Of a stretch of DNA of 64,000 bases, positions 19,823-45,950 are shown in pieces. How positions within the stretch are numbered: position 1 is the stretch's first letter; the number at the start of each line of letters is the position of its first letter. Source of the DNA: Pseudanabaena sp. OTE_70b_metabat_355 (GTDB lineage Bacteria > Cyanobacteriota > Cyanobacteriia > Pseudanabaenales > Pseudanabaenaceae); contig JANMFC010000526.1 of NCBI GenBank assembly GCA_031377675.1, positions 120-64,119 on the forward strand, given 5' to 3'. Under the pieces are notes generated by a model. That model saw only the letters and a program-made list of their open reading frames with translations. It was not told where the DNA came from and did no database searches. The position numbers and the translations under genes are program-made.

Positions 19823-22786
19823 ATGATGCATCATCCCGACCCGAACGAGAAGTCCCGTGAACAAAGAATGGTAAAGAAGGACGCGGTTATGCGTCGTCTT
19901 CTTGCGGCGACTTTGTCTGTCAGCAGCTTGTGGCAGCTCATGCCCCCCACCGCAGTAGCACAAGTTGCTACTCCTCTGACTGCGGCTGGTACAGCGATCG
20001 ATAACACCGCCACAGGTACTTACATTGATCCCAATACTGGCACAGTGATAAACGCCACATCTAACCCAGTCACGGCGACAGTGGCTGAGGTAGCTGGTGT
20101 AACTGTCGTTTCGTCAGGAACGATCGACGTAAACGGCGGTAGTGTCACTACTGGTGATTTTGTTAATTACAGCTTCTTGATTACCAATACTGGTAACGAT
20201 CGCACGGCTCTGCACATTCCTACTTCCGCGACTACTACAGCAGCTGGTACTCTTGGTACAACTACACTGCCTGCTGTTCCGAACGTATTGCCTGCTACTG
20301 GGAGCAGAAGTGTATATGTCACCGAAATTAATGGCGTAGTCTTAACCTCACCTGTACTACTGCCTGCGAGTGGTAATACGAATGATCCTTTATTTATTAC
20401 TGCCGTTAATGGTTTAGCCTCTGGGGCTCTTCTCCCACCAGTAGGCGATATTCCGTTAGGTGCTGGCAGTATTCCTATTGGTGGCACGATCAAGGTGGTT
20501 GTCCCTGTCACGATCGCCGCAACGACCGCAGGTACACTAATACCAGTAACTTTGGGTAATACAGGAACTTATGTTGGCGATGTTGGCACTAACACCCAAA
20601 ACCAACCTGATGCGGGAAATCCGACTGCTATCCCACCTACTCCAGTTGAAACTGGCACTGATCTCGGTGGAGCAGATGAAGTCTACACCATCAACGTGAC
20701 CACAGCTTTACGAGCTACAGCACCCGCTAATGGCGTTCGTGAAGCCAGTGCCAAAAACACACAGACTCTTGCGACCCAAATCAATAACCTCGCCCTAGCG
20801 ACCGTCCTCAAAAAGCGCATCGGCTATGATACCAAGGGTACTGCAAGCTTTGCCGATGACACGCTAACCTATCGACTAGACTTGAATGTCGAAACATCCG
20901 CACCTGCTGGCAGTACAGGTATTACACCTGGGGCATTGACTGGTACAGCTATCAGAACCAAAGCCAATTCAGGCGTACTTGTAGCAACAACGGAAAATAA
21001 GGTCTTAATTTCTGATGTCATTCCTGCCAACACGATCTTAGATGTATCAGCATTAACACCTGCCACGGTGACCATTAATGGTGTGGTTTGGACAAGGGTT
21101 TATAGCACTCAACCTACAACAATTTCCGCATTAGCGCCTACTCAAGAGTGGTTGCTTGACGTTCCAACTGGTACTCCTGTTGTAACCCGCATTGGTTACA
21201 TTGCCAATGGTCCGATCGCATCAGGTTACTCAACCACAGGTGCTAGTGATCTTCTTGCGTTGAGAGTTCAAGTCATCACAACTGGGCTTACCGCTGTAAG
21301 CTCACCTGTGACGATCGCCAACATTGCCCAAGTCTTTGGTCAAACAGCACCTACTAGCGGTCCAGTTCTTGCGATTAGTCCGACCAATCCTCTGGTTTAT
21401 GACGAATCAGGCGACCAAAATCCGAACAACTACGAAAGTGGTTCTCCATCCGTACCCTCGTTCACCGATCCTCTATTTCCTGCTGCTGGTGTACCTCCTC
21501 TGCCCACTGGTATTGCAAGTCCTACAGGTGCCAACGGCACTGACACCAATGGAGTTGGCAACAACAACACAGGTACTGGACCTGGTGGGGAAGATAACAC
21601 CTTCACGATTAACCCTCTTGGCTCGGTCTTAAATGGTCCTCCAGGACAAGCAGGCGCGGTCGGACCTAACGGAAATAACACCGACTTTGTTAACAAATCC
21701 TTAGCCCTTCCTGCTGGTTTAGCATCTGGTCTTGCTCTCAGTACTGCTACGCCTGCGATTACGCTTGCCCAGCGCACCGTTGTCTTTACCAATACAGTTC
21801 AGAACCCCTCCACCAACACAGCCCAGTTGGACAACGTAACTTTGGAGCCAATCACGGCTGCTCAAGCTGCGGCTGCACCTACACCTGCCTTAGCTCTAGC
21901 AGACTTTGTGCTTCCAACTACAAGCAATGGTGAACCTTTACCTAATGGCACTACGGTCACAATTGCCTATCCTGTTGGTTCTGTTGCTGGTGTATCGGGA
22001 AATACAGCCACTTACACATTAAGTGCGACTGGGTTTGATCTAACCCAAAGCACAATTGGTGCTGTAACTTCTACAACAGGTGTCGCAGTTAAGCCAGTCA
22101 GAATCAATTCTATTGCCATCGGTGATCCTCAGGACTACAACGTAATTGTGGTATTGCCAGTCTCCGCCCTTGCGACAAGAGCCTATTCTGTGCCGATCGT
22201 CGCTTATGTAGACAGTAACGTCAGTAACTCAGGTGTTCTTGGTACTGGTAGTGGCACTGTTGCTGATCCTTTCAGAGGTGGATTCAAGAGTTTTGATTCA
22301 GATGCACCATTCAACATCAAGATTGATCGCGTGTACACAGGCTACTTGGATCTCGATAAGAAATCTCGCGTCATTCAAGGAACTGGTCCCGCAGTAGCTG
22401 CTGGTGACGTAGCGTTTTCCAATAGTGCAAAGAGTCCAGCCCCTGGAAACATTCTTGAGTACCTTCTTACTTACAAAAACATTTCCACACTCGCAATTGG
22501 CACTGCCAATGTCGTTTTGAATGCGAACAACATCGTTATTACTGAAGATGGCGCGACTCTTCCTAACAACTGGGCTACGACAACTTTGAACGTGCCTAGT
22601 ACTGCCACTGTAGCCTTAGATGCTGCTGGCGTTGCGACCCCTACTTACAGCGCTGTGATCACCTTCTTCAACGGTGCGACAGCTGTGACGACAGTAGATC
22701 CCAACGTAACTAGGTATCTCGATAGCATCCCATCTCTAACCCCTGGTCAGACTGGATTCTTCAGATTCCAACGTCAGGTCAAATAG
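19823..22786 (+). CDS. Secreted beta-strand-rich DUF11-like surface protein, 987 aa (candidate major filament subunit)
   Basis: Signal peptide ending AVA|Q, N-terminal AAGTAIDNTATGTY motif, Ig/DUF11-like domains, and a C-terminal DUF11-like domain ending GFFRFQRQVK. Confidence 0.85.
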   Translation: MMHHPDPNEKSREQRMVKKDAVMRRLLAATLSVSSLWQLMPPTAVAQVATPLTAAGTAIDNTATGTYIDPNTGTVINATSNPVTATVAEVAGVTVVSSGTIDVNGGSVTTGDFVNYSFLITNTGNDRTALHIPTSATTTAAGTLGTTTLPAVPNVLPATGSRSVYVTEINGVVLTSPVLLPASGNTNDPLFITAVNGLASGALLPPVGDIPLGAGSIPIGGTIKVVVPVTIAATTAGTLIPVTLGNTGTYVGDVGTNTQNQPDAGNPTAIPPTPVETGTDLGGADEVYTINVTTALRATAPANGVREASAKNTQTLATQINNLALATVLKKRIGYDTKGTASFADDTLTYRLDLNVETSAPAGSTGITPGALTGTAIRTKANSGVLVATTENKVLISDVIPANTILDVSALTPATVTINGVVWTRVYSTQPTTISALAPTQEWLLDVPTGTPVVTRIGYIANGPIASGYSTTGASDLLALRVQVITTGLTAVSSPVTIANIAQVFGQTAPTSGPVLAISPTNPLVYDESGDQNPNNYESGSPSVPSFTDPLFPAAGVPPLPTGIASPTGANGTDTNGVGNNNTGTGPGGEDNTFTINPLGSVLNGPPGQAGAVGPNGNNTDFVNKSLALPAGLASGLALSTATPAITLAQRTVVFTNTVQNPSTNTAQLDNVTLEPITAAQAAAAPTPALALADFVLPTTSNGEPLPNGTTVTIAYPVGSVAGVSGNTATYTLSATGFDLTQSTIGAVTSTTGVAVKPVRINSIAIGDPQDYNVIVVLPVSALATRAYSVPIVAYVDSNVSNSGVLGTGSGTVADPFRGGFKSFDSDAPFNIKIDRVYTGYLDLDKKSRVIQGTGPAVAAGDVAFSNSAKSPAPGNILEYLLTYKNISTLAIGTANVVLNANNIVITEDGATLPNNWATTTLNVPSTATVALDAAGVATPTYSAVITFFNGATAVTTVDPNVTRYLDSIPSLTPGQTGFFRFQRQVK

Positions 22787-22798
22787 TAGTTGATCGGC

Positions 22799-22841
22799 AT
22801 GGAGTAACTAGGATTACATTTACTAATCCTAGTTACTCCAT
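22799..22841 (+). terminator. Perfect 18-bp stem hairpin just after the 987-aa gene
   Basis: ATGGAGTAACTAGGATTA-N7-TAATCCTAGTTACTCCAT. Confidence 0.7.
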
Positions 22842-22996
22842 TCTTAATTGAGATAGGGAACATTTGGGTTCCAATGTCAAGTCAAGTAGATAATTGATCT
22901 TTGAATTATTAACTAGGCTTAGCTAGGTAGCTTGCCTAGTTAGTACTTCCTTGCCCAAATACTATTCACACATTGTTCACAACTCAGACAAACCAA

Positions 22997-23563
22997 ATGA
23001 AACGTATAAACTTAATTGGCTTAGGCGCGATCGCCTTGATCGCCACGACTGCTTTTTCTGGAGTGATGCCAGGACTAGCCACCTTGCAGTCGCGTGACAC
23101 CGCGATCGCCCAGACCGCTAAACAAGATTCTCCCGTCAAATTAGTTCTCGCTGCCGAAAAAAGAGCATTACTTGATATTGTCTCTGGACAGAACAAATGG
23201 GTTCCACTTGCGCCTAACGCATCACTACAGCCTGGCGAAACAATTCGTTATGTCGTCACCGCCAGCAATACCAGCGATCGCGCCATCAAAAATCTAGTTG
23301 TGACTCAACCGATTCCCAAAGGTTCAGTTTATGTTCTAAACTCAGCAACCTTACCCAGTATTGACGGAGCAAAGGTAGAGTACAGCATCGATGGCGGCAA
23401 AAACTACAGCGCCAAACCCACAATTCGCGTCAAGAACGAAAACGGCGAAATTGTCACTAAGCCTGCACCTGAGACTATGTATACAAATGTCCGATGGACT
23501 TTTGGTGAGAGTCTTTCTCCAAAAACAGCTTCCAACGCAACTTATCAGGTTCGCATTCGCTAG
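22997..23563 (+). CDS. Secreted single DUF11-like domain protein (candidate periplasmic chaperone/cap)
   Basis: Signal peptide MKRINLIGLGAIALIATTA..., PGETIRYVVTASN, NLVVTQPIP, ends ATYQVRIR; ATG at 22997 preferred over TTG 22973. Confidence 0.85.
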   Translation: MKRINLIGLGAIALIATTAFSGVMPGLATLQSRDTAIAQTAKQDSPVKLVLAAEKRALLDIVSGQNKWVPLAPNASLQPGETIRYVVTASNTSDRAIKNLVVTQPIPKGSVYVLNSATLPSIDGAKVEYSIDGGKNYSAKPTIRVKNENGEIVTKPAPETMYTNVRWTFGESLSPKTASNATYQVRIR

Positions 23564-23642: not shown

Positions 23643-23716
23643 AGGGCAAGCACGGGGGCATTGCCCCTACCCGAATAATTCATGATCTGTAGGGGCTGCG
23701 CCCCCGTGCCAGCCCT
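23643..23716. repeat. GTAG-type REP doublet (REPIN-like)
   Basis: AGGGCAAGCACGGGGGCATTGCCCCTAC ... GTAGGGGCTGCGCCCCCGTGCCAGCCCT in inverted orientation. Confidence 0.75.
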
Positions 23717-23777
23717 CAATCATGAGGATCGCTAATTTTTAAAGATGCTTTAAGGCAATTTGAGGTTACTTGTTTCA

Positions 23778-25364
23778 ATGAAGATTAAAAGTTGCACAAC
23801 AAAACAAAAAATTCTGCGAAACAGCTTCAAGTTTGCCGCAACTATTCTGATGGCTGCATCTCAAATCTGCCAATCCGCCCTTGCACAAGGACAGTCTCAA
23901 CAAAGACGACCTGAACGAAGAGCAACATCAGCAGCCACGGTTGAAATTTTTAACACGGCTGCGTATCAATACAGCTTTCCCGATCCCAATGATCCTAAAA
24001 AAGAAATTACTATTAAGAGTGAGTCGGCACAACTTCAAGCGGAACTGATTGACCCGTTCGGTAGGGTGACAGCTTGTGATGGTGGGCTTCTGTCTGATTA
24101 CACAGGCTTTAGTGTCGGTTTGTATGAGCCTCTTAACGATCTTGGTGACTTTGGCTTGCCAATCGTTTTAACTGGGACAGTGCCGCCAAATCAAGTCTCA
24201 GCTAGTAATCGATTTGTGGGACTAGAGCCAAATTTTTATAATATTAATCCCTTTTTCTTAACCAACGGCGATCAAGGCAAATTTAACTTCCTGTATGACG
24301 ACAGTCGTGGTCAAGTTGATATCGGTCGTGTCAATATTCTTGTCGTAAAAACTGCTGCTAACTCATCTTTAGGTGGAAGAAGAATAAAGATTACGATCAC
24401 TTCACGGGTTGGAAACATTGTCGGCTATACAGCGACTTCGTTAGACGGAAAAGCAATTACCACAGATGGTGGAGGCACTTCGGTTAACGGTACGATTGAC
24501 GTTGCTAATGCCGCTACAGTTGGACTTGGCTTGGCGGTGTTTAATCTTGCCATTTCATCATGCGATGCCGTATCTCTACAAATTTTAAAGACAGGCGATC
24601 GCGCTGCTGCACAACCTGGCGATATCGTCATTTATCGCTTAAATATTCGCAACCTTTCTACATCCGCAATCAGAGATCCTGAAGTTCGCGATGATTTGCC
24701 GCTCGGATTTCAATATGCAGAAGGCTCCGTAAAAGCTGAATTTGGTGGAGTACAAGTTCCCGTCACCATCGAAAAGAACGGCAGAAGTCTGATCTTCCGT
24801 CCCAACATAGAACTCCCTAGTGCCAGAGACAATGTTGCGTTGACGGTCGTTTATGCCGCACAAGTTACCAATGATGCCATTCGTGGCACAGGCATCAATC
24901 GCGCCACAGTTCAAGGAACACTTAGTTCTAATAACTCGATCGTCCGTGACGGTCCCGCATTTCATAAGCTCAGAGTTAGCCCCGGAATTTTGTCTGATTG
25001 TGGAACTTTAGTCGGTCGAGTATTTGTCGATAAGAACTTTGATGGCGAGCAGCAACCAGGCGAACCAGGAGTTCCCAATGCTGTGCTTTATATGGACGAT
25101 GGTAATCGGATTGTCACCGATCCTAATGGTCTATATTCTCAAAGTTGCGTACTTTCTGGCAGTCGGACTTTAGCGATCGACCTAACTTCTGTGCCTGGCT
25201 ATACCCTCGCGCCAAATCTGTATTTTGCCGAACGCAATAGTCAATCTCGATTGGTACGCTTAGCCCCTGGCAGTTTAAATCGAGTTAACTTTGCGGTTAC
25301 TCCCGTTGCGCGTGGACTAAGTACCAACATTAACAGTAAGCCAGAACAAGGTGGAGCAAAATAA
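23778..25364 (+). CDS. Secreted DUF11 + SdrD-B-like domain protein (candidate base/anchor subunit)
   Basis: Signal peptide; EIFNTAAYQY motif; one complete DUF11 domain (LQILK...RDDLP...GINRATV); C-terminal GRVFVDKNFDGEQQPGEPG. The stop overlaps the next ATG (TAATG). Confidence 0.85.
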   Translation: MKIKSCTTKQKILRNSFKFAATILMAASQICQSALAQGQSQQRRPERRATSAATVEIFNTAAYQYSFPDPNDPKKEITIKSESAQLQAELIDPFGRVTACDGGLLSDYTGFSVGLYEPLNDLGDFGLPIVLTGTVPPNQVSASNRFVGLEPNFYNINPFFLTNGDQGKFNFLYDDSRGQVDIGRVNILVVKTAANSSLGGRRIKITITSRVGNIVGYTATSLDGKAITTDGGGTSVNGTIDVANAATVGLGLAVFNLAISSCDAVSLQILKTGDRAAAQPGDIVIYRLNIRNLSTSAIRDPEVRDDLPLGFQYAEGSVKAEFGGVQVPVTIEKNGRSLIFRPNIELPSARDNVALTVVYAAQVTNDAIRGTGINRATVQGTLSSNNSIVRDGPAFHKLRVSPGILSDCGTLVGRVFVDKNFDGEQQPGEPGVPNAVLYMDDGNRIVTDPNGLYSQSCVLSGSRTLAIDLTSVPGYTLAPNLYFAERNSQSRLVRLAPGSLNRVNFAVTPVARGLSTNINSKPEQGGAK

Positions 25365-28300
25365 TGAAAAACACTTCTGCTCCTCTTCTCAAGCTAGCAA
25401 TTTTCGCCTTCCCGCAAGTGATGTTGTTGCTGATTGCACCATCAGTAAGAGCGGATGTAGTCTCAGATGTAAGCACCGAAAGCAAAAAAACTGACATCAA
25501 ACAAAAAGACTCGTTAGCGAATCCAGTTAAAGTTTTACCTGTTAACGCTGAATCGGTAAAGGTTGAGCCTATATCGGTAAAAGTTGAGGCGATCGCTTCT
25601 CCAAAAGTCGATCCCCAAAACATTACCATCGAAAAGCCTGCCGAAAAGCCTACTGAAAAGGTAACAGGTCAAAACGAACCCGCAAACACTGCTAACCTGA
25701 CAACAAATCCTCCAAAAAATCCTCCAAAAAATCCAACAGTCTCTCAATCTCCCGTTGCCCCAGAAACTACTCCAAATCCCACTACACCAACCCCAGCTAC
25801 CGCTCCAACTAATTCCACTTCGCCACGCATAACCATCCTCTCGCCCACCGCTAACACGGTGATGGATGCTCCCGCCGCAACAGTGGTAATCCAAAGCCCT
25901 AGCAATACCAAAGTTGAACTTTTGGTAAATGGCAAACTCGTTGACTCTAATTCAATTGGGCGATCGGAATTAGATGAAGTCAATAAAACCATCACGCAGA
26001 CTTGGTATGGCGTACCCCTACAAGCAGGTGAAAACATCCTTTCCGCAAGGGTCGCAGGAACTGAGCAAACCCTGAGTTCAGTCACTGTCAAAGTCAGAGG
26101 CACACCCGTCAAACTGGCGATCAATACCCTAGAATCGCGCATTCCTGCGGATGGACGCTCGTATGCCACAGTTGATGGACAACTCGTTGATGAGAATGGC
26201 AATCGCTCCAATTGGGATGCGATCGTTACTTTACAGGCTAGCGATGGTGAGTTTATTGGTACTGATGCGTCACCAGAGCAGCCAGGGTTTCAGGTTCAAG
26301 CCAAGCAAGGTAAATTTACCGCGCAATTAAAATCGGGGCTGAAAGCAGGCACAATCATCATCCGAGCGCAAAATGCTCAGATGGAAACTTTTACGCAGGT
26401 TCAGTTTGAGACGGATTTGCGTCCATCCTTAGTCACGGGTGTAATCGATCTACGGGTTGGTGCTAGAGGTACGGATTTTTATCGTAGTTTGCGTGAGTTT
26501 TTACCTAGCGATCGCGATAATCGCACTCAAGTCGATCTCTATGGCGCTGTGTTCGGCACAGGTCGAGTGGGCGAATGGCTAGTCACAGGCGCATATAACA
26601 ATAGCCGCACCCTTAATCAAGATTGCAGTGGTAACAGTAGCCTATTTAGTGGCGAAAAATATTGCGGTACGCAATATCCCGTCTATGGCGATAGCTCGAC
26701 CGCGTCCCAAGCCGCCCGTTCCTACGACAGTTTATATTTGCGTTTTGAGCGGACTTCATCCGTAAAAGATGCCAGCCCCGACTACTTCATGTGGGGTAAC
26801 TTCAATACTGAGGAGTTTGCCTCGCGATCGCAGCAATATTCTTCCATTTCGCGTCAACTACATGGAGCCAAAGGTAATTTTAATCTTGGTGATGTGCAGC
26901 TCACGGGATTTTATAGCAATGTCGGCAAAGGCTTTCAACGCGATACGATCGCTCCCAATGGCACAAGTGGAACTTACTTTCTCTCGCGTCAGCTATTAAT
27001 TAGTGGCAGTGAGAATGTATTTGTCGAGCTAGTTGATTTCTTTAGTGCAGGAACAGTGGTTTCTCGTAAAGAAGCGGTGCGGGGCAAAGACTACGACATC
27101 AACTACGACAATGGCTCATTGCTATTTCGGCAGCCTCTTTATCAAACCGAACTAGGTGATAAGGGCGAACTCCTGCGCCGTCAGGTTGTGATTACCTATC
27201 AAAATGAACAAGCAGGCGGAGATAGTAGTATCTACGGCGGACAACTGCGCTATCACCTCAATCGCAGCCAATCTCAACCAAGTTCACTCGCTGTAAATTA
27301 TTTCAAAGAAAGTCAAGGGATTCGTAATTTTGTCCTGTATGGGGCAAATGCGCTAATTTCGTTTAGCGAAAAAACTCAACTAACAGCCGAATATGCCCGA
27401 TCAGAGAATGATTCGGAAGTTGTGGGATTTGTGAGTGGTTCGGCATATCGATTTGAATTAAATAGCGAGATTGCAGGTATCCTCGGCAAAATCTACTACA
27501 ACAAAGCTGAGACAGGTTTTGCGAATAATGCCACGATCAGTTTTGTGCCAGGGCAGACTAGGTTCGGCACACAGTTAAGTGCTAAGGTCGGCTCTACGAC
27601 AGATCTAAGATTTCAATACGAGCAGGAAAATAATAATGGCATCGCGCCCCGCCCTTTAACTGTTCTCACCGATTTGCTTACTCCCCGTCAGGAAGCAGTT
27701 CCAGGTACGGCGGTGGATAATTCCTTACGCACGATTAGCTTTGGATTGCAGCAAAATATTGGCGCGGCTCTGCTCAATCTCGATCTGCTCTATCGCGATC
27801 GCCAAGATCGCCAAACACCAAATGTACTATCGAGCAACTCAACCCAACTGCGATCGCGGGTATCAGTGCCGATCGCCGAGAACCTCAAATTTTCTGCTCA
27901 AAATGAAGTCAGTCTCTCCTCTAGCGCTGATGCCGTAATTCCCGATCGCAGTGTTGTCTCTCTAGATTGGACAATTGTTCAAGGCTTGACCGCAAGATTG
28001 GGTCAGCAATGGTTCCATTCAGGCGCTTTAGCAGGAAGTTCGATTACCAGTGCGGATTTGCTGGGAGAATATAGACTCGGCACTGATACTAGTTTGACGG
28101 GGCGTTATTCCGTTGTCGGTGGCGGCAACACCACCTCTACACAGGGTTCGGTAGGACTGAATCAGCGTTGGCAAATCATGCCAGGTTTGCGCTTAGGGTT
28201 TGGCTATGAAAAAGTATTTGGCACGTTTGCTTCCGCAACCACGACCGCGACAGGCACGCAGTTTCAGCAGCCTGTCGCGGTTGGGCAGTCCTCTAGCTCT

Positions 28301-31117
28301 TTGACTAGCCAGAGTGGTGATAGCTACAATATCGGACTGGAATATACCGACAACCCCGATCTGAAGGGCAGTATCAGGTTTGAGAATCGTAGTGGCAACA
28401 ACAGCAGCAACACGGTGCTTAGCGCTTCGGTTCTCGGTAAACTCACGCCTGCGATGAGCATGATGTTCAACTATCAGCAGTCTAGCGCCGCCAACCAAGG
28501 ACTGTCAGGTATGGGGACGATCGCTAATCTCAGGGTGGGGCTAGCCTATCGCGATCCCCAAGATGATAAATTTAATGCTCTACTTCGTTATGAATACCGC
28601 CAAAATCCGAGCATTATTCCCGAATCACTGTTGATTGGTGGCGGTAGTGGCTATGTTGATCACACTCTCGCCCTTGAAGCGCTTTATGCTCCTAACTGGC
28701 AATGGGAATTTTATGGCAAGCTCGCACTCCGCAACAGCACCACCACGATCGCTAAAGACTTTACGGGTGTATCCAATACCAACTTGACTCAGTTTCGAGC
28801 TACCTATCGTGCGGGTTATAACGTGGAGCTTGTGGGTGAAGCGAGAATGCTCAACCAGCCCACCGCAGGCTATAGCGAAATCGGATTAGTGGGAGAAGTT
28901 GGCTATTACCTGACCCCTGATTTACGCTTAGCTTTGGGCTATAGCAGTGGTTCGATTAATACCGATCGCGATTTTAGTGGTTCGCGCTCCGCAGGTGGAC
29001 TATATGCAGGGATCACGGTTAAGCTCAACGAATTGTTTGATGGCTTTGGTTTACAAAAGACTCCACCACGTCAGCAACAGGAGCCAATCGATCCGCAAAC
29101 ACCTGTATTGCAGGAGCCAAAACCCGCCCAAAAATTATCGGCGGCTTTAACGTCTGACGAAACTCAGATCATTAGCTTGAACGTAGCGCGATCGCTGACA
29201 TTCCAAGATAGCAAGCAAGGCGATAGTGCCGAGTTAGCCGCCTCAGACATTGCGATTCTGGAAAACCTTGCCTCAGTCTTAAAAGAATTTAACAATCTCT
29301 CCATTGATATCCAAGGACAAATTGGTTCTCTTGCCGATATGAATTCGGGTGAGAATGTGGCGGCGAATCGGATGATGGCGGCGAGAAAATATCTACTCAA
29401 TCGCGGTGTTGCTTCTAATCAAATGACTTTACGTTCATTGGGTGCTGTGGCGGCTACACCTAGCAATCCTGATAGTAAGATTGCATCAGCAAATTCTTCG
29501 GCAAACGCCATGCCGATCAGCTTTGCACTCACAGGTCGCGCCGATATCTTTAACGCGATCGCTACGAGACTGCAAACGATGGCAACGAGTACGCCAGCGA
29601 CTGAATTTTTACAAGCAATTTTACCGAAGGTTGAGCCGACTCTCCAAGCTAATGCTGCGATCGCGCCCACCAATGCTCCTAATCGACCCGTTGCGAATAC
29701 GACTGTGGGGGTCAACTTTAGTAATGACGGTAGAATTGCCGACTTGAGCTATGCCACCCTCGATCGCTTGATCGAGCGACTGAAGGCTAACCCCAACGCA
29801 ACTACCGAAATTCAATCTGGCTCAGCGCTAACGGCTTCAGCAACTCAAGATCTGGATATGTTTAGGCTGACCGCAATCAGAGAATACTTGCTGGATAAGG
29901 GAATTAGTTCCGATCGCATTTTACTCAGTACAAATAGCGCGACTAATAATCAGGCGGCTTCGGCACAGGTATTAATTTCGCTCAATGTCGATGATGCTAA
30001 CACCAACATCGCGGCAACGCCGACTACTCCAACCACACAAGCAAGTTCTCAAACTACTCCAACTACTCAAGCAAGTTCTCAAACTACTCCAACTCCACAG
30101 GCTAGCGCTACGACCGCGCCTGTTCCACTTGCTAGCGCTGACATCTTGAACTCGCCATTAGCAATGCTGCTAAACAATGGCGATCGCCGCCTCAATAGTT
30201 GGCTCGAAAGTTCGTTGCCCAACTTGCCATTTGTTGATGCGTTCAATCCTCAATTTAATGGTCAATTCAATCTCCAGTTTATTGACGCACTCCAAATTCC
30301 AAGCTCTGTTCCTAGCGTTGGACTCACCCAATTGTTAACTCAGTTACCCGTAACTACCGATTCGCTGTTATTAGCGATCGCCCCTGCTGAGAATAATAAT
30401 CCTAAGCCGACATCTAGTCTTTGGAGCTATGCCTTTGAGAACTCAACAACACAACTCATGAGCAAGTTGCTCGATCTGTCCACACCGCTTGCCACAGCCA
30501 ACACTACCCCCGCTACACAGGCTAGCGCCACAACTGAAGTTATACCCTTGGCAAGTGCAAATACTCTAGTCTCGCCATTGGCGCTGTTGTTAGATGGCAG
30601 CGATCGCCGCTTCAACAATTGGATCGAAAGCTCGTTACCAGACTTTATATTTAATAGTCAAGTTAATACTCTATTCACTGGTCAGTTTAGTGACTCGTTC
30701 CGAGTATCTAATACGGGAGCGACTCAACTGTTAACTCAATTGCCAATCACTCCTGAAGCATTGCTATTGGCGATCGCGCCTATTGATCGGTCAGTCGATA
30801 ACAAGCCCACATTACCAACAGCCGAATCTAGTCGCATCTTGAGTTACTACTTTGACAATTCGCCCACACAACTCGTAAGTTTATTATTGGGTAATGAACG
30901 GGCGGCTAATAGTCCATCGGCAATTAACAATAATGCTCAGGCTAACGCCAATAGCCCCGATGACAGCGCCAATCGTCGTCTTGCAAACGCCTTTAACTTC
31001 CTGTTAAGTAAGGATGGCGACACGGTGACAGCGTTCCTGCGATCGCTGGGAATTAGTAGTACCGAGAAAAGCGGCTTTGTGATTGACCCCGCTCAATTCA
31101 ATCAGATTAAGAATTAG
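25364..31117 (+). CDS. Very large predicted outer-membrane beta-barrel protein with N-terminal Ig-like domains and C-terminal OmpA-like domains, 1917 aa
   Basis: Signal peptide, P/T linker, Ig-like domains (PADGRSYATV), about 870 aa of amphipathic beta-strands ending GLYAGITVKLNELF, two degenerate OmpA-like segments, and a duplicated C-terminal repeat. Confidence 0.75.
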   Translation: MKNTSAPLLKLAIFAFPQVMLLLIAPSVRADVVSDVSTESKKTDIKQKDSLANPVKVLPVNAESVKVEPISVKVEAIASPKVDPQNITIEKPAEKPTEKVTGQNEPANTANLTTNPPKNPPKNPTVSQSPVAPETTPNPTTPTPATAPTNSTSPRITILSPTANTVMDAPAATVVIQSPSNTKVELLVNGKLVDSNSIGRSELDEVNKTITQTWYGVPLQAGENILSARVAGTEQTLSSVTVKVRGTPVKLAINTLESRIPADGRSYATVDGQLVDENGNRSNWDAIVTLQASDGEFIGTDASPEQPGFQVQAKQGKFTAQLKSGLKAGTIIIRAQNAQMETFTQVQFETDLRPSLVTGVIDLRVGARGTDFYRSLREFLPSDRDNRTQVDLYGAVFGTGRVGEWLVTGAYNNSRTLNQDCSGNSSLFSGEKYCGTQYPVYGDSSTASQAARSYDSLYLRFERTSSVKDASPDYFMWGNFNTEEFASRSQQYSSISRQLHGAKGNFNLGDVQLTGFYSNVGKGFQRDTIAPNGTSGTYFLSRQLLISGSENVFVELVDFFSAGTVVSRKEAVRGKDYDINYDNGSLLFRQPLYQTELGDKGELLRRQVVITYQNEQAGGDSSIYGGQLRYHLNRSQSQPSSLAVNYFKESQGIRNFVLYGANALISFSEKTQLTAEYARSENDSEVVGFVSGSAYRFELNSEIAGILGKIYYNKAETGFANNATISFVPGQTRFGTQLSAKVGSTTDLRFQYEQENNNGIAPRPLTVLTDLLTPRQEAVPGTAVDNSLRTISFGLQQNIGAALLNLDLLYRDRQDRQTPNVLSSNSTQLRSRVSVPIAENLKFSAQNEVSLSSSADAVIPDRSVVSLDWTIVQGLTARLGQQWFHSGALAGSSITSADLLGEYRLGTDTSLTGRYSVVGGGNTTSTQGSVGLNQRWQIMPGLRLGFGYEKVFGTFASATTTATGTQFQQPVAVGQSSSSLTSQSGDSYNIGLEYTDNPDLKGSIRFENRSGNNSSNTVLSASVLGKLTPAMSMMFNYQQSSAANQGLSGMGTIANLRVGLAYRDPQDDKFNALLRYEYRQNPSIIPESLLIGGGSGYVDHTLALEALYAPNWQWEFYGKLALRNSTTTIAKDFTGVSNTNLTQFRATYRAGYNVELVGEARMLNQPTAGYSEIGLVGEVGYYLTPDLRLALGYSSGSINTDRDFSGSRSAGGLYAGITVKLNELFDGFGLQKTPPRQQQEPIDPQTPVLQEPKPAQKLSAALTSDETQIISLNVARSLTFQDSKQGDSAELAASDIAILENLASVLKEFNNLSIDIQGQIGSLADMNSGENVAANRMMAARKYLLNRGVASNQMTLRSLGAVAATPSNPDSKIASANSSANAMPISFALTGRADIFNAIATRLQTMATSTPATEFLQAILPKVEPTLQANAAIAPTNAPNRPVANTTVGVNFSNDGRIADLSYATLDRLIERLKANPNATTEIQSGSALTASATQDLDMFRLTAIREYLLDKGISSDRILLSTNSATNNQAASAQVLISLNVDDANTNIAATPTTPTTQASSQTTPTTQASSQTTPTPQASATTAPVPLASADILNSPLAMLLNNGDRRLNSWLESSLPNLPFVDAFNPQFNGQFNLQFIDALQIPSSVPSVGLTQLLTQLPVTTDSLLLAIAPAENNNPKPTSSLWSYAFENSTTQLMSKLLDLSTPLATANTTPATQASATTEVIPLASANTLVSPLALLLDGSDRRFNNWIESSLPDFIFNSQVNTLFTGQFSDSFRVSNTGATQLLTQLPITPEALLLAIAPIDRSVDNKPTLPTAESSRILSYYFDNSPTQLVSLLLGNERAANSPSAINNNAQANANSPDDSANRRLANAFNFLLSKDGDTVTAFLRSLGISSTEKSGFVIDPAQFNQIKN
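30022..30110 (+). repeat. In-frame 30-nt tandem repeat (TTPTTQASSQ, about 3 copies)
   Basis: actactccaaccacacaagcaagttctcaa / actactccaactactcaagcaagttctcaa / actactccaactccacaggctagc. Confidence 0.85.
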
Positions 31118-39300: not shown

Positions 39301-41825
39301 TCAGTGGTTCTAACTTTACGACTGTCAATGCTTCCGAACAAACAGTAATTATTGAACCTGCCGATTTAGCGGTGACTAAGGCGATCGCGCCTAGTCCTTT
39401 AGTCGCTAGTGGTACAGGAACCTACACCATTACGGTAACGAATGTAGCATCGGCTGCAAGTACAGGTGTATCTTATCCACAAATCTATCTGCAAGATTAT
39501 TTGCCCACAGGTTTAAGCTATACATTACCTTTACCCACTACAGGTGCAAGTGTCGGAGATGGTTGGGTATTTATTGGTTATAACGAGAGTGCAAAGGAAG
39601 TTACCTACAAACGCACAACCGCGTTAGCAAATGGTGCTTCAACTAATATCACCCTGCCTGTTACAGTGTCGGCATCACCGCCAGCCAGTGTCACTAACTT
39701 TGTGCGGGTCGGAGGTTTTACGCCTGAGCCTGATTACGATCTTGCGACTGCTGGATATCAAGATCCTCGATTAGCCACCTGTGATGCGTCCTTTGGGGCA
39801 AGTCAACCCGTTAACAACTGTTTTGCTCTCACAACACCAATTTCAGGTGGTGTGTCTACGGACTTAAAAGTAACCAAAATTGAGGGGACAGATAACGATA
39901 ATCCTCCCAATCCAGCAGTTGCTTTTAATACCAACTTTCCCTACACCATTAGGGTCGCTAACGTTGGTGGCAGTAATGCTGAGACTGTCACCTTAACCGA
40001 TGTTTTACCCGCTTCGTTAGAGTATGTTTCTCACAGCATTGATGCAGGTGACGTTACTATTACCAATCCCTTCAGTGTTTCACCTGCAAACCTAACTCGG
40101 ACTTGTAATTATGCGCCTGGTACTCGTACTTTTAGTTGTAATTTACTGCGAGTTTTGACAACAGAAAGTGATGCCGATCCCATTGATATTACCCTTACAG
40201 TTAGGGGCGTAGTATCAGGAATTGTCGATAACACTGCCACAGTAACTTCAGTTACGGCGGATACTGTCACTGCGAATAACACTGAATCCGAAAAAGTCTT
40301 GATTAGCCCAGGTGGTGCTAATAGGATAGAGGGTAAAGTCTTTAATGATTTAAGTGATAATGGTCTGTTTGATGGTCTTGAAACTGGCACTGCGAATGTC
40401 ACCGTGCGACTCTATCAAGATAACGGTACGACTAACGGCTCTTTTGATGCGGGTGACACTCTCATCGCTACAGGCACTACCAATGGCACGGGCGACTATA
40501 GTTTTACGACTTCATTAACAGGTAACTTTGTTCTGAATGTGAATACCGCCACCCTGCCATCTGGTCACGTTCTCACCCCAACTGCAACACCCGTAACTTT
40601 CCAAACTGCGGTGTTAGGAACTCTTGATCAAAATAATAACTTTGGTCATAAATCAACTGCCGTAGCGACCGATTTTGGTGATGCACCCGACACTTATGGC
40701 ACAAACCTTGTTAATAGCGGTTCAGAAGGGATTGGGGCATATCACACCGTCAACACCAATATTCACTTAGGTGCAACTGTGCCAGATGCGGAAGCCGATG
40801 CGGCGACCCCCTTAAATGGTACGGGTGATGATGTTACTGGTACTGATGATGAAGATGGAGTTACTACCTTCGCGGCTCTGACTACTAGTACTACGCCTTA
40901 TAGCGTTGGGGTGACAGTCAAAAATACTACGGGCGGCAATGCCAATTTAGTCGGTTGGATTGACTTTGACCGTGATGGCGTTTTTCAAGCTGATGAAGGT
41001 GCGTCTGCCATAGTAGCCAATAGCGCCACCACTGCAACCCTCACATGGAGCAACATCGGTACTACTGGACCAAATATTGTTGCTGGTAATACATACGCTC
41101 GTTTTCGGATTACGACAGATGCGATTACAACCAGTAGTACAGGTGGTGCAGCAACCAACGGCGAAGTTGAGGATTATCCCTTAACTATTGGTGCTGTTCC
41201 TCGTCTCAACCTTGTCAAGCGAATTACCGCGATCAATGGCACTAACATTACAGGATTCGCTGATGGTACGGATGTGCTGCCATCCAATGACAATGATGCG
41301 AAATGGCCCTCACCAAATACTCAATATTTACGCGGCGCGATCGCCTGTACGGCGGGATCACTTTGCAACACCACCATCGCTGGCGTTAAACGAGACGACA
41401 CTGTGGAATACACAATTTATTTCCTTGCTAATGGTACGGATGCTCTCAAGAATGTAAAAATCTGCGATCGCATCCCCGCCAATACCACCTTTGAGCAAAA
41501 CACCTATGCGACTGGGAAGGGTATCTTACTAGGCTGGGATAGCCAAGCGGTTCCAACGGCTTTACCCGATCCTATCAACTCGACACCAGAAGTACCCTCA
41601 ATTAAACAGTGGCTAACCAACGCCATTGCCGATCTACCAGACAAAGGTAATTTTGTACCTGCTGGCACTTCTCTACCCAATCCACCCTGCGGAACCGACC
41701 CAAATAACAACGGTGGTGTGGTTGTCGATGTTGTATCAGGCGCAACTACTATCCCGATCGCCACTGCATCAGGTGTTCCCATTAACTCCTATGGGTTTGT
41801 CAGATTTAATGTCAAAGTCAACTAG
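33300..41825 (+). CDS. Giant adhesin-like protein, 2841 aa: N-terminal domain, 12 DUF11 repeats, SdrD-B-like, GEVED and C-terminal truncated DUF11-like domain
   Basis: Long basic N-region plus signal peptide (QPAYA|). I count 12 D/N/T-L-x-x-x-K repeat starts (TDLSVVK through TDLKVTK). DFGDAP...GEVEDY; ends SYGFVRFNVKVN. Confidence 0.88.
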   Translation: MFRALKNFLNSNSIGNKRRAASPKPENQTKNRIDNQIENQSKRSGRIASKNRTNKKAKISIQKSRKQNQLKRVSRFLGIVFTTFVLMLQLSGLGLLFTLQPAYAATTLAIEPITWDFVGLDSNKPESQGPNTYVVGARVCNLGIEDARNVSVRFIKDGVDNGYAFIRLQSGEVYTFDRVKANVPANNAVSADIYGRIKLTTGSIAGGYTFDTPANGSLLKTKYRINYTPTNCQDFYYNFEVTRTDAAWNTYQKYYLRATADNAGTVETARPRQSYIEKLISQARNEVYFFGCDALGGVAYAGPTVSVGVGDTFTCQARAHTATAYPQMSFTSDIPNVIFQVLDVQSTYSDPVGGVNSTVYADGCGWVQDPTDPRYHLSPGACSSETGFANTYSDQYPYTAPPTEGKGAVGNDITTIYKIKVIAFPNGIPNPIKVSNVILDYSGSSYHYNADYGIAPNVVNINVVTPSATDLSVVKSHVGNFNFGNNTYTLTVSDDVNSSSAKAPVILTDTLPAGYTFVDQNALLSGTQPLSGPSAVNWNCETSGQVLTCLYDTDGDGVGDNFPDGGTNALTLNVNIANGALPSGTTSTNFVRVALNTAQTDSNPANNTSSDPTTILPNADLAIVKTLADGDLTVGGNQASFVTGRQGTYNLQVTNLGNITATTPTITDTLPSELQFVSGVGTNWTCSAVGQNVTCTSSQNIAPAATTNVTLTVLVRDTSSTSTINTAIVSSPTYDAILTNNTSSVTTPITRPTPDLSITKTPSPVTLILNKNSNYTINVSNVGSDATSGTIKVDEIFPTGFGMQYIAHAGSGWSCIYSDSTPTTRPCQSGDTTNGTGTTVGTQNITFYNPGPLAAGASSAITLTVKATLDPGSTVNNTVKVSTPGDGGTGTKTAISPTNIGKPDLSIIKTHADPMTLSTNNDYTITVTNSSTAGTATTTGPISVTETFPSTGSFAYVSHSGSGWSCIFEATGTSPVSPRACLSGDTTGTASGTTRTITFYNTGPLSAGQTSSFTLTVNPGATVITAVPNTVVVSTEGEASTTLANNTYPDPTSTLAAGSSTRDIAVEKRITRVSGSPIALTDTTPTAITYVAAAPTATQCTGALPAGAGVTPFTPSGGTNPADDFSGTGTNVAAIDTATLAASRRYTCPALTAGQYVQYKIAVGSNQSSGSGKDIGISFNDAIPSILQNVSWSCSIPEPGIGGGGGPAGNNTCDTSVLTPPTYPTPEITGTTNTISLPRIGLRKRGTGNPGEIPYALITVVGRVNPSATAADLARIDNIANLGTDANLNNNSWTVQSGSGVVPTPPDLTITKTGIASINNYAQGTYTLAVATTAASTPATNRITVIDTLPTGLDFVSASGTNWTCSSAGSIITCYSDTDIPSNTTSAETIAVTVKANSVAVLPTVVINRASVSTASETILNNNNATASTTINAPVLPNLTVGKTDGGATFTQGVNGTYTITVNNTGTVATSTPITVTDTLPTGLTYFSATGTNWTCSNSGQIVICNTSQVINNGSSATPITLIVTPTIGTGTVTNNVRVDTTANAETTTADNTGSDTTPLQTNITDISIAKTARSFDGLSAVTNFQQGQQYRYRLAVTNISATVPAVAPITVTDLLPTGLTYLYSASTDGFTCSATGQTVTCDRPTNLAPSSTVSVDLVVQVGGSAPASVTNQARVTSVSDTCPDFTCTGGTKDNNRTTLNNTIGATVDLAIVKTAVDQDAVTAGNQFYQDGPAVYNITVTNNGPSNYAGSVIVNENLSAITPSDPNFTYVSHTDNTTWTCTSGGGSCVGNKNLVFTKTGGLLAGESSTIALTINVPDGVTGLKTNVASIDAATITAANDTVPGNNTENEVVDVLDNLTTLTLVKDDNDGTGEPINADLQTKFFRGGIGKYTIVATNTGGSAAKAPVTISDTLPSGLTYAGNSLTSNWQCTAGGGNSFSCIYGNWNPTFTTFTQANMPVGTTSGVEILVNVSNTATLSTLDTTPPAPDVYNAGLTTNTASISGSNFTTVNASEQTVIIEPADLAVTKAIAPSPLVASGTGTYTITVTNVASAASTGVSYPQIYLQDYLPTGLSYTLPLPTTGASVGDGWVFIGYNESAKEVTYKRTTALANGASTNITLPVTVSASPPASVTNFVRVGGFTPEPDYDLATAGYQDPRLATCDASFGASQPVNNCFALTTPISGGVSTDLKVTKIEGTDNDNPPNPAVAFNTNFPYTIRVANVGGSNAETVTLTDVLPASLEYVSHSIDAGDVTITNPFSVSPANLTRTCNYAPGTRTFSCNLLRVLTTESDADPIDITLTVRGVVSGIVDNTATVTSVTADTVTANNTESEKVLISPGGANRIEGKVFNDLSDNGLFDGLETGTANVTVRLYQDNGTTNGSFDAGDTLIATGTTNGTGDYSFTTSLTGNFVLNVNTATLPSGHVLTPTATPVTFQTAVLGTLDQNNNFGHKSTAVATDFGDAPDTYGTNLVNSGSEGIGAYHTVNTNIHLGATVPDAEADAATPLNGTGDDVTGTDDEDGVTTFAALTTSTTPYSVGVTVKNTTGGNANLVGWIDFDRDGVFQADEGASAIVANSATTATLTWSNIGTTGPNIVAGNTYARFRITTDAITTSSTGGAATNGEVEDYPLTIGAVPRLNLVKRITAINGTNITGFADGTDVLPSNDNDAKWPSPNTQYLRGAIACTAGSLCNTTIAGVKRDDTVEYTIYFLANGTDALKNVKICDRIPANTTFEQNTYATGKGILLGWDSQAVPTALPDPINSTPEVPSIKQWLTNAIADLPDKGNFVPAGTSLPNPPCGTDPNNNGGVVVDVVSGATTIPIATASGVPINSYGFVRFNVKVN

Positions 41826-45206: not shown

Positions 45207-45950
45207 ATGACTTTTACCTTAGAGCCATCAAGCGATCGCGTCACACTTCCCGATCATACGCAACTTCCCGAATCTGACGGTACGTTTGTGAAAAATTTTC
45301 AAGATCATCCCCAAAGTATTTTACTCACCGATTCGATTGAGCCGATTTTACAAAAATATCATCCTGATGGACAATACGCGATCGGGCAAGATTCGGGTAT
45401 CTATTGGCGCATGACTGAACCACCCGAAAAGGGAGCCAAAGCCCCTAATTGGTTTTATGTCCCGAATGTGCCGCCGACCATAGATGGTCAGCCTCGCCGC
45501 TCCTATGTGCTTTGGCAAGAATTTATTGCGCCGCTCATTATTTTAGAATTTGTCTCTGGTACTGGTAAAGAAGAACGCGATCGCACCCCTTGGACGGGTA
45601 AATTTTTCATTTATGAGCAGGTAATTCGTCCTGCTTTTTATGGTATCTACGAAGTCCAAAAAGCCAGCATCGAGCTATATCGCCATGTCACTAATCACTT
45701 TGAATTAGTAACTGCCAATGAAAGAGGACATTTTGCGATCGCCGAGTTGGGTGTGGAACTTGGCATTTGGCAAGGAGTTTACCAAAATTCCGACTTGCCT
45801 TGGCTGCGTTGGTGGGACGCTGATGGTAATTTGCTATTAACGGGCTGGGAAACCTCTGAACAAGAAAAGTTAATTGCTCAACAGGAACGTCAAAAAAATG
45901 AAATTTTGATCGCCCAACTCCGTGCCGCAGGGATTGAACCGCAGCTATAG
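45207..45950 (+). CDS. Uma2 (DUF820) family protein
   Basis: LPDHTQLPESDG.FVKNFQ.HPQS, GQDSGIYW, LEFVSG and WLRWWD motifs. Confidence 0.88.
   Translation: MTFTLEPSSDRVTLPDHTQLPESDGTFVKNFQDHPQSILLTDSIEPILQKYHPDGQYAIGQDSGIYWRMTEPPEKGAKAPNWFYVPNVPPTIDGQPRRSYVLWQEFIAPLIILEFVSGTGKEERDRTPWTGKFFIYEQVIRPAFYGIYEVQKASIELYRHVTNHFELVTANERGHFAIAELGVELGIWQGVYQNSDLPWLRWWDADGNLLLTGWETSEQEKLIAQQERQKNEILIAQLRAAGIEPQL

Follow-up and report, generated by a model that had tools for sequence, protein, structure and literature searches.

A DUF11/CLIPPER-like protein lacking the isopeptide triad in a conserved four-gene module of cyanobacteria: a candidate non-covalent acceptor

In a 64,000-nucleotide stretch of DNA from Pseudanabaena sp. 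OTE_70b_metabat_355 (GenBank assembly GCA_031377675.1, contig JANMFC010000526.1, positions 120 to 64,119 of the forward strand; hereafter the window, by whose numbering all features are placed), a gene that we call B codes for a small exported protein which belongs, as far as sequence and predicted fold tell, to the DUF11/CLIPPER superfamily but fails the chemistry by which that family is defined. To judge from its alignments, B has the shape of the acceptor end domain of neighbouring fibre proteins with the cross-linking chemistry lost, and the whole Lys/Asp/Asn isopeptide triad is, on the same grounds, lacking from it. It is also a core, usually single-copy member of a conserved four-gene module (A, B, C and D) with synteny in Cyanobacteriota, Acidobacteriota and Gemmatimonadota. 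In our opinion the balance tips slightly towards B binding a donor hairpin non-covalently, and the reading that we favour, tentatively and at a little less than an even chance, is that B would be a non-covalent acceptor for the hairpin of the A protein, acting as a distal cap or as a transient escort, with a leaning to the cap. The features of B are the following.

22997-23563, + strand: gene B, a 188-amino-acid exported single-domain DUF11/CLIPPER-like protein (open reading frame and translation, TIGR01451 and PF01345 matches, homologues)
22997-23110, + strand: predicted Sec signal peptide, residues 1-38, with MKR, a hydrophobic core and AIA before the Q (sequence reading, alignment A1)
23141-23161, + strand: first strand, L49-V-L-A-A53-E-K55, with Ala53 at the Lys position of the L-x-L-x-K register and K55 two residues off (hhalign against the C-terminal domain of A)
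23213-23353, + strand: DUF11 core motif, residues 73-119, PGETIRYVVTASNTSDRAIKNLVVTQPIPKGSVY (TIGR01451 match; hhalign against the 275-amino-acid-type module and canonical repeats)
23306-23308, + strand: codon CAA for Gln104, which stands where DUF11 domains have the catalytic Asp (translation, profile alignments)
23381-23494, + strand: most conserved region, residues 129-166, with an Asp-box-like YSIDGGK, a beta-hairpin, P-A-P, Y162 and R166 (invariant or near-invariant alignment columns)
23528-23560, + strand: last strand, ATYQVRIR, and end of the protein, aligning with the terminal strand F-x-F-Q-R-x-V-[KN] of A

The original prediction, made from the letters of the window alone, had described the domain of B as a single truncated DUF11-like one, and this description held. 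TIGR01451 matched B at 34.2 bits (cut-off, 24) over residues 73-119, and Pfam PF01345 at 24.5 bits, 0.1 bit under its gathering threshold of 24.6, over profile positions 9-69 of 114. As to truncation, an end-to-end profile alignment by hhalign between the B family and the C-terminal domain of the 987-amino-acid A protein fits this term, since it covered 125 columns (probability 67%, E 5e-5) and reached both C-termini together; as in that end domain, the DUF11-like domain is the last part of B and finishes in a strand of the form [FY]-x-[FV]-x-[RV]-x-V-[KNR]. With CLIPPER and other DUF11 domains B shares the core motif G-x-x-[IV]-x-Y-x-[IV]-x-[IV]-x-N ... [IV]-x-[IV]-x-D-x-[IL]-P and a CnaA-like immunoglobulin (Ig) beta-sandwich. 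The AlphaFold2 model was a confident sandwich over residues 47-188, with a predicted local distance difference test score (pLDDT) above 90 at 118 residues, and its weakest part was the first strand (76-80, against more than 93 elsewhere). When this model was submitted to Foldseek, the lowest root-mean-square deviation (rmsd, 3.8 Å) was that with the CLIPPER structure 9ifr (probability 1.00, target TM-score 0.53, E 1e-2); RrgB D2 was among the matches, and carbohydrate-binding modules headed the list as weak matches with an rmsd of 7-14 Å. The E-values of this search were all weak, an effect of the disordered leader contained in the query. A profile search of PDB sequences with B returned nothing meaningful, the matches being to invertase Asp-boxes at E ~0.7. 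B is set apart from CLIPPER stalk repeats by being a free-standing single domain, and from canonical DUF11 repeats by a conserved Asp-box-like loop plus a hairpin.

Homologues of B were collected by a word-index search plus a full HMMER search, which found 82 close and more than 170 small ones, and 172 small homologues (140-230 amino acids) were aligned. The profile of these was compared with that of 31 sequences of a module of about 200 residues which forms the C-terminal part of three proteins encoded downstream in the window (2841, 740 and 275 amino acids; motif NVKICD[RAL]IP at 41451, 43876 and 44765). In this comparison NLVVTQPIP of B lay opposite NVKICDRIP with a probability of 95.4% (E 1.7e-8). 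A smaller profile of 35 B sequences gave the same pairing at 41%, and BLASTP of B against the 275-amino-acid protein found no similarity, the relationship being visible at the profile level only. In the alignment of B with the canonical repeats of the 2841-amino-acid protein (hhalign probability 85.7%), Gln104 likewise stood opposite the Asp of V-T-D-T-L-P, and giant DUF11 proteins that match most of the length of B carry Asp there. The replacement of the catalytic Asp by Gln, on which the original prediction was built, is thus borne out. Its conservation was confirmed for the aligned homologues, of which 155 had Gln at position 104, 5 had Glu, 3 Asp and 2 Asn; Asp or Glu thus occurred in 8 of the 172, and a majority of acidic residues among orthologues, which had been named in advance as the outcome that would speak against the idea, was not found in cyanobacteria. 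The conservation did not extend to the other phyla, the residue being Asp in four Gemmatimonadota proteins and Gly or Thr in three from Acidobacteriota.

A different result was obtained for the first strand, whose Lys (in LAAEK) had been thought to be kept. This residue, K55, is Lys in 85 and Arg in 64 of the 172 homologues, Arg being present in most of the other Pseudanabaena-type sequences aligned, and the Lys of the partner proteins falls not on it but opposite Ala53, where the homologues have Ala (127), Val (26) or Gly (10) and never Lys. By inspection, the canonical repeats (D-L-x-I-x-K) and the 275-amino-acid-type module (L-L-L-V-K) have their Lys in the same register. Thus, of the two elements of a reactive acceptor, the Lys of L-x-L-x-K occurred in 0 of 172 and the acid of x-[IV]-x-[DE]-x-[IL]-P in the 8 already mentioned. 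The third residue of the triad has no better counterpart, Asn180 being present in only 46 of the 172, and no homologue, including the few with Asp or Glu at position 104, combined Lys, acid and Asn. The notion of an acceptor that would be unable to cross-link therefore stands, and in a stronger form than was proposed, given that both the catalytic acid and the canonical Lys are gone. In the CLIPPER structure 9IFR the intramolecular isopeptide triad is Lys715/Asp748/Asn806, with Asp as the catalytic residue (PMC12617251, Protein Sci 2025); in B the first two are matched by Ala and Gln, and the Asn strand is missing altogether since the chain stops short of it. The same survey reported that some DUF11 domains lack the bond-forming residues. 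The orthologues from Gemmatimonadota (loci L087, L088, L093 and L095) retain Asp at position 104 and still have no first-strand Lys, which implies that Lys was lost earlier, and over a wider range of orthologues, than Asp was changed to Gln; they also carry a short additional C-terminal tail, A-A-P-G-E-A-K, beyond the last strand.

Two other arrangements were considered for these residues and dropped. One took SNATYQV as the canonical Asn strand, and therefore B as a complete domain; the low frequency of Asn180 spoke against it, and the L-x-P loop together with the end-to-end alignment with A put the strand one position earlier. The other, prompted by the T103-Q104 pair, was a Thr-Gln ester bond of the Cpe0147 type, which calls for a conserved Thr in the first strand, a Gln in the last one and a catalytic His/acid pair; there is no conserved His, and the Gln of B lies in the middle of the domain and not in the last strand.

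The open reading frame of B runs from an ATG at 22997 to the stop codon at 23561-23563, and this start was favoured over an upstream TTG at 22973 by the N-termini of the orthologues, which begin with MK[RKN]. The first 38 residues or so resemble a Sec signal peptide, in keeping with the original prediction: MKR and a long hydrophobic stretch are followed by an A-x-A-Q cleavage site (AIA-Q, residues 36-39) that is conserved among the orthologues of alignment A1, and the pLDDT is below 50 across residues 1-42. A lipoprotein anchor was also considered and found unsupported, as no lipobox Cys occurs at the cleavage site or anywhere within the N-terminal 45 residues of B or the aligned orthologues. 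At the opposite end, Y183 of the last strand is nearly invariant, both in alignment A1 and among the 172 sequences, nearly all of which finish with V/I-R/K. The most conserved region, residues 129-166, is a candidate binding surface on account of its alignment columns. The model places strands at 125-130, 142-146, 152-156 and 164-169, all with pLDDT above 93. A self-plugging role for the hairpin at 142-156 was unsupported, the domain of A having a comparable variable segment there.

Gene B is part of a same-strand cluster (19823-45112) that encodes, in this order, A, B, C, D and proteins of 722, 2841, 740 and 275 amino acids. The 722-amino-acid product is a beta-helix/OmpA protein, and that of 2841 amino acids has ten DUF11 repeats. 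The elements that matter for the argument are listed below.

19823-22786, + strand: gene A, a 987-amino-acid multi-domain DUF7925 protein with the N-terminal two-strand motif AGTAIDNTATGTY...SNPVTATV and a C-terminal DUF11-like domain with Lys and Glu (Pfam, synteny)
22799-22841, + strand: perfect 18-bp hairpin with a T-rich tail just after gene A, terminator-like
23643-23716, + strand: 28-nt imperfect inverted repeat (82%) between genes B and C
23760-25364, + strand: gene C, 534 amino acids, DUF11 plus SdrD_B, with a donor-like motif at the N-terminus and a stop codon that overlaps the start of D
25364-31117, + strand: gene D, a 1917-amino-acid giant outer-membrane barrel with an OmpA domain, of the All3289 family (profile matches, PMC9705863)
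44285-45112, + strand: 275-amino-acid protein used as comparison acceptor, with an N-terminal motif and a C-terminal module with K83 and D166

The two repeats that bracket B may be attenuators or RNA-stability elements setting different dosages of A, B and C/D. A gene of the Uma2 family (putative restriction endonuclease-like; 45207-45950) lies directly behind the last of the fibre genes, where the cluster ends.

Immediately after their signal peptides, A and C carry a motif of the form G-T-x-I-x-N-x-A-x-x-x-Y ... S-N-x-V-x-x-x-V, which we call the donor motif. Its I-x-N-x-A...Y part was found in all 58 full-length A proteins, in 55 of 60 C proteins, the exceptions being mostly start-codon artefacts of open reading frame picking, and in only 3 of 82 B proteins, in agreement with the claim that B has no donor motif. 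The C-terminal DUF11-like domain of A, in contrast to B, has retained the reactive residues: among 59 A proteins from cyanobacteria and Acidobacteriota, Lys was present in 58 of the 58 aligned and Glu in all 59. Similarly, K83, D166, C165 and C218 were invariant in the 31 sequences of the 275-amino-acid-type module. Neither of these end domains has a conserved Asn after the acid, and together they are an undescribed class of acceptor that is probably reactive. In the AlphaFold2 model of the 275-amino-acid protein, the N-terminal motif (residues 35-70) was disordered, with pLDDT below 50, and was not folded onto the C-terminal module (79-275) of the same chain, which was modelled with confidence. 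This pattern fits a split-domain idea by which the N-terminal hairpin of one chain would supply the Asn strand that is missing from the end domain of another.

The order A-B-C-D was observed in Crinalium, in Nostoc piscinale and in about 70 cyanobacterial loci of the 80 fetched. Blastocatellia have the genes arranged as B-A-[C fused to D], the fused open reading frame (1887 amino acids) comprising DUF11, SdrD_B and the barrel, and in Gemmatimonadota a related order was seen, with B followed by DUF11 proteins, a C-like protein and the barrel. Fusion of C and D in Acidobacteriota is a hint that the two proteins also work as a unit in the organism of the window. The fusions of this phylum (two DUF11 domains, SdrD_B and barrel) measure 1863-2131 amino acids (L091:12767-18430, L089:3669-9260 and L094:3776-10171), and those of L089 and L094 begin with the same I-x-N-x-A...Y motif as A. 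Among 301 sampled cyanobacterial genomes, B was present in 36, usually as a single copy, and DUF7925 in 33, all of them within those 36; the genome of the window has one B. A Nostocales-type genome (G127) has two separate adjacent A-B pairs (C1:4708670-4711241 and C1:2593886-2596319), from which it follows that A and B duplicate together. Comparisons between distant cyanobacteria gave identities of 54-65% (D), 48-56% (C), 43-48% (B) and 30-38% (A). Taken together, synteny, co-occurrence and this ranking indicate that B is a core dedicated partner of A, with a degree of conservation between those of the machinery and the fibre protein.

A few loci depart from this picture. At one fetched locus only, that of Cyanobacteria bacterium FACHB-63 (L077:10001-10558), was a B homologue seen with none of A, C and D in the flanking 10 kb to its left or right, and it may be an orphan copy. 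Two metagenome-assembled genomes, of Sphingobacterium thalpophilum (L080) and Tatlockia sp. (L049), have B and C genes, plus A and D in the former, at identities of the cyanobacterial level (38-50%; B, 40-44%), and the contigs are probably mis-binned cyanobacterial ones and not evidence for the cassette in those genera. The metagenome contigs that carry divergent B homologues were too short to reveal neighbours.

On this basis we propose that strand complementation would let B receive the invariant hairpin at the N-terminus of A and keep it there with no isopeptide bond. The amide of the conserved Gln104 could pair through a hydrogen bond with the invariant Asn of the hairpin, and the space that a Lys would fill would stay free thanks to the small residue at position 53. 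In the simplest fibre so conceived, the hairpin of C would be locked into the end domain of A at the barrel, and the hairpin of A itself would be taken either by another A or an adhesin (a reactive acceptor) or by B (a non-reactive one). As a cap, B would sit non-covalently at the distal end of a fibre of composition B.A(n)-C/D. The lean to the distal cap derives from the count in the minimal module, where the donor motifs of A and C/D face an equal number of acceptor-type domains (that of A reactive, that of B not), two of each, and from the order B-A-CD of Acidobacteria. As separate forms of non-covalent binding, we regard the cap as possible, at well below an even chance, and an escort that is later displaced as rather doubtful. 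The broader proposition that B is a natural "dead catcher", that is, a non-reactive acceptor derived from a split isopeptide domain and holding the hairpin of A reversibly, is offered with reserve, as a candidate explanation that could well be wrong.

As an escort, B would be a transient periplasmic holdase, a decoy acceptor that would hold the hairpins of A, and perhaps those of C, after Sec export and so prevent premature irreversible polymerisation. At the C/D barrel a reactive acceptor would take its place, and the finished fibre would never contain B. We consider such a role to be on the doubtful side, although several observations agree with it. The cross-linking residues are gone from B in all three phyla and kept in every other acceptor-type domain, as a reversible binder needs; the donor Asn of A is apparently invariant, and its hairpin therefore probably ends in a reactive acceptor; the conservation of B is nearer to that of the machinery (C and D) than to that of A, the variable fibre protein; the two occur as one-to-one pairs, like a dedicated chaperone and its client; and the hairpins that flank gene B would permit separate dosage. 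Against this, a donor segment that is disordered, as the model predicts, would need little shielding, known pilus chaperones such as PapD and FimC guard an incomplete fold (the acceptor) and not a donor strand, B is a single domain with no PapD-like match, and a permanent cap explains the count of two donors and two acceptors more simply. The idea that B accepts no strand at all, being a complete, closed DUF11 variant without isopeptide bond and with some other accessory role in the module, we judge unlikely. By means of the surface formed by YSIDGGK, P-A-P and Y-T-x-V-R-W, such a protein could possibly serve as adaptor or plug of the C/D barrel or bind peptidoglycan, glycan or envelope. The strongest conservation of B does lie in the half that is not DUF11 (the Asp-box-like loop and hairpin) and not around position 104, and closed domains of this sort would agree with the bond-less DUF11 domains already reported (PMC12617251) and with the carbohydrate-binding modules heading the Foldseek list, weak and of poor geometry as those matches are. 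What a closed variant leaves unexplained is that B ends exactly where the end domain of A ends, that it tracks A one to one, duplications included, and that 90% of the sequences from cyanobacteria keep Gln at the catalytic position. Finally, B could be imagined as a shaft subunit polymerising non-covalently by swapping its own first strand (residues 47-56), with A as tip adhesin. Its mature size of about 150 amino acids is typical of major pilins, the strand in question combines the lowest model confidence with a conserved alternating L-x-L-x-A, and the hairpin behind gene A is reminiscent of the attenuators found downstream of major pilin genes; there is, however, no N-terminal extension beyond some 8 residues ahead of the first strand, nor any sign of self-association in the data, and a single-copy partner is what one would read from the A-B-C-D stoichiometry and from the pairing of one B with one A, for which reasons this origin of the filament seems to us highly improbable.

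Several observations weigh against the view that B accepts the hairpin of A non-covalently. The full-length alignment of B with an acceptor has a probability of only 67%, and outside the core motif of 43-55 columns B is unaligned with the 275-amino-acid-type module or the canonical repeats. That the donor motif resembles the last two DUF11 strands was seen by inspection only, hhalign of the donor motif of A against canonical DUF11 repeats having given no alignment, and the split-domain model is inferred. The apparent invariance of the donor Asn of A among the sequences inspected is better explained by insertion of the hairpin into a reactive acceptor than into B. Moreover, AlphaFold2 folds B as a single chain, with no partner, into a compact sandwich of ten strands, and a protein of 319 amino acids (P0171; L097:772-11033, JGI metagenome 3300017989) has two tandem B-like domains joined by a linker of 8 residues, which would mean that the domain may be self-sufficient and accept nothing; both facts agree with a closed variant. 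In P0171 neither domain has Lys at the canonical position, and the acid position is Val in one and Asp in the other. Its gene lies between those of two CLIPPER proteins and of a 1951-amino-acid C-D fusion, a variant of the same cassette.

The original prediction had compared B with the chaperones of chaperone-usher pili, but in that comparison the polarity is the wrong way round: each of those chaperones consists of two Ig domains and gives a strand to the groove of the subunit, whereas B has one domain and would accept a strand. B gave no Pfam match to the PapD family at E up to 0.1 and, being a single domain of about 140 residues, does not have the PapD_N/PapD_C pair; PapD or usher matches were equally lacking for the fibre-protein genes scanned. 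The similarity lies in the gene layout (subunit, small periplasmic protein, large outer-membrane protein and further subunits) and in the logic of strand complementation, and the difference also in the links, which are all non-covalent in chaperone-usher pili, whereas the partner domains of the cassette keep Lys and acid and probably lock covalently. With respect to a cap, in chaperone-usher pili the subunit without donor strand (the pilin domains of FimH and PapG) is at the distal tip, and PapH, their terminator, is a further comparison for B. The nearest functional parallels known to us are, by analogy, the engineered non-reactive SpyCatcher variants and CsgC. SpyCatcher E77Q and SpyDock are engineered non-reactive partners of SpyTag, made from the split CnaB2 domain of FbaB, that still dock the tag. 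B would resemble SpyCatcher E77Q in being a split isopeptide domain whose catalytic acid is changed to Gln so that no bond is formed. It differs from both in being natural, of CnaA/DUF11 type instead of CnaB type with Glu, and in having lost the Lys as well, and its binding is a prediction. CsgC, of the curli system, is a single Ig-like periplasmic protein that blocks premature polymerisation of CsgA. It is likewise a small Sec-exported beta-sandwich encoded with a fibre system and acting non-covalently, and offers a functional analogy to the escort idea; it has no sequence match with B, the curli fibre is an amyloid, and CsgC is not strictly conserved with curli operons, unlike B, which is a core gene of its module.

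Donor-strand complementation together with inter-subunit isopeptide locks has been described for the threads of Sulfolobus acidocaldarius (PMC9715654) and for a matrix protein of Clostridium perfringens (PMC11580942); their folds and export routes differ from those of the cassette, and the parts of these reports considered here mention no dedicated non-reactive acceptor. A search of one literature library on DUF11 with isopeptide, pili or cyanobacteria, on DUF7925 and on all3287-all3292 found no study of B or of the cassette. All3289, the barrel of Anabaena PCC 7120, is mentioned there only as an atypical "OmpA-like" outer-membrane protein (PMC9705863), and all3292 only as a predicted target of FurC, with a predicted FurC site upstream.

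Should B prove to be a closed accessory domain, it would add one more DUF11 variant without isopeptide bond to a category already known. If, on the other hand, the fibre of the cassette locks covalently through completion of CLIPPER-like domains, B is the one conserved part that seems built not to lock. Mature B and the 40-residue N-terminal hairpin of A make a minimal pair for the split-domain model and, were the dead catcher real, B would give the design of reversible tag-and-dock reagents a starting point taken from nature. It would also be the first known chaperone or cap that works by mimicry of a self-ligating domain without its chemistry. We know of no control step for self-ligating assembly described for sortase pili or chaperone-usher pili. 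If our reading is true, the dead catcher would control when and where the irreversible, sortase-independent covalent assembly of an undescribed outer-membrane fibre occurs, and B would show how cells keep self-ligating assembly under control.

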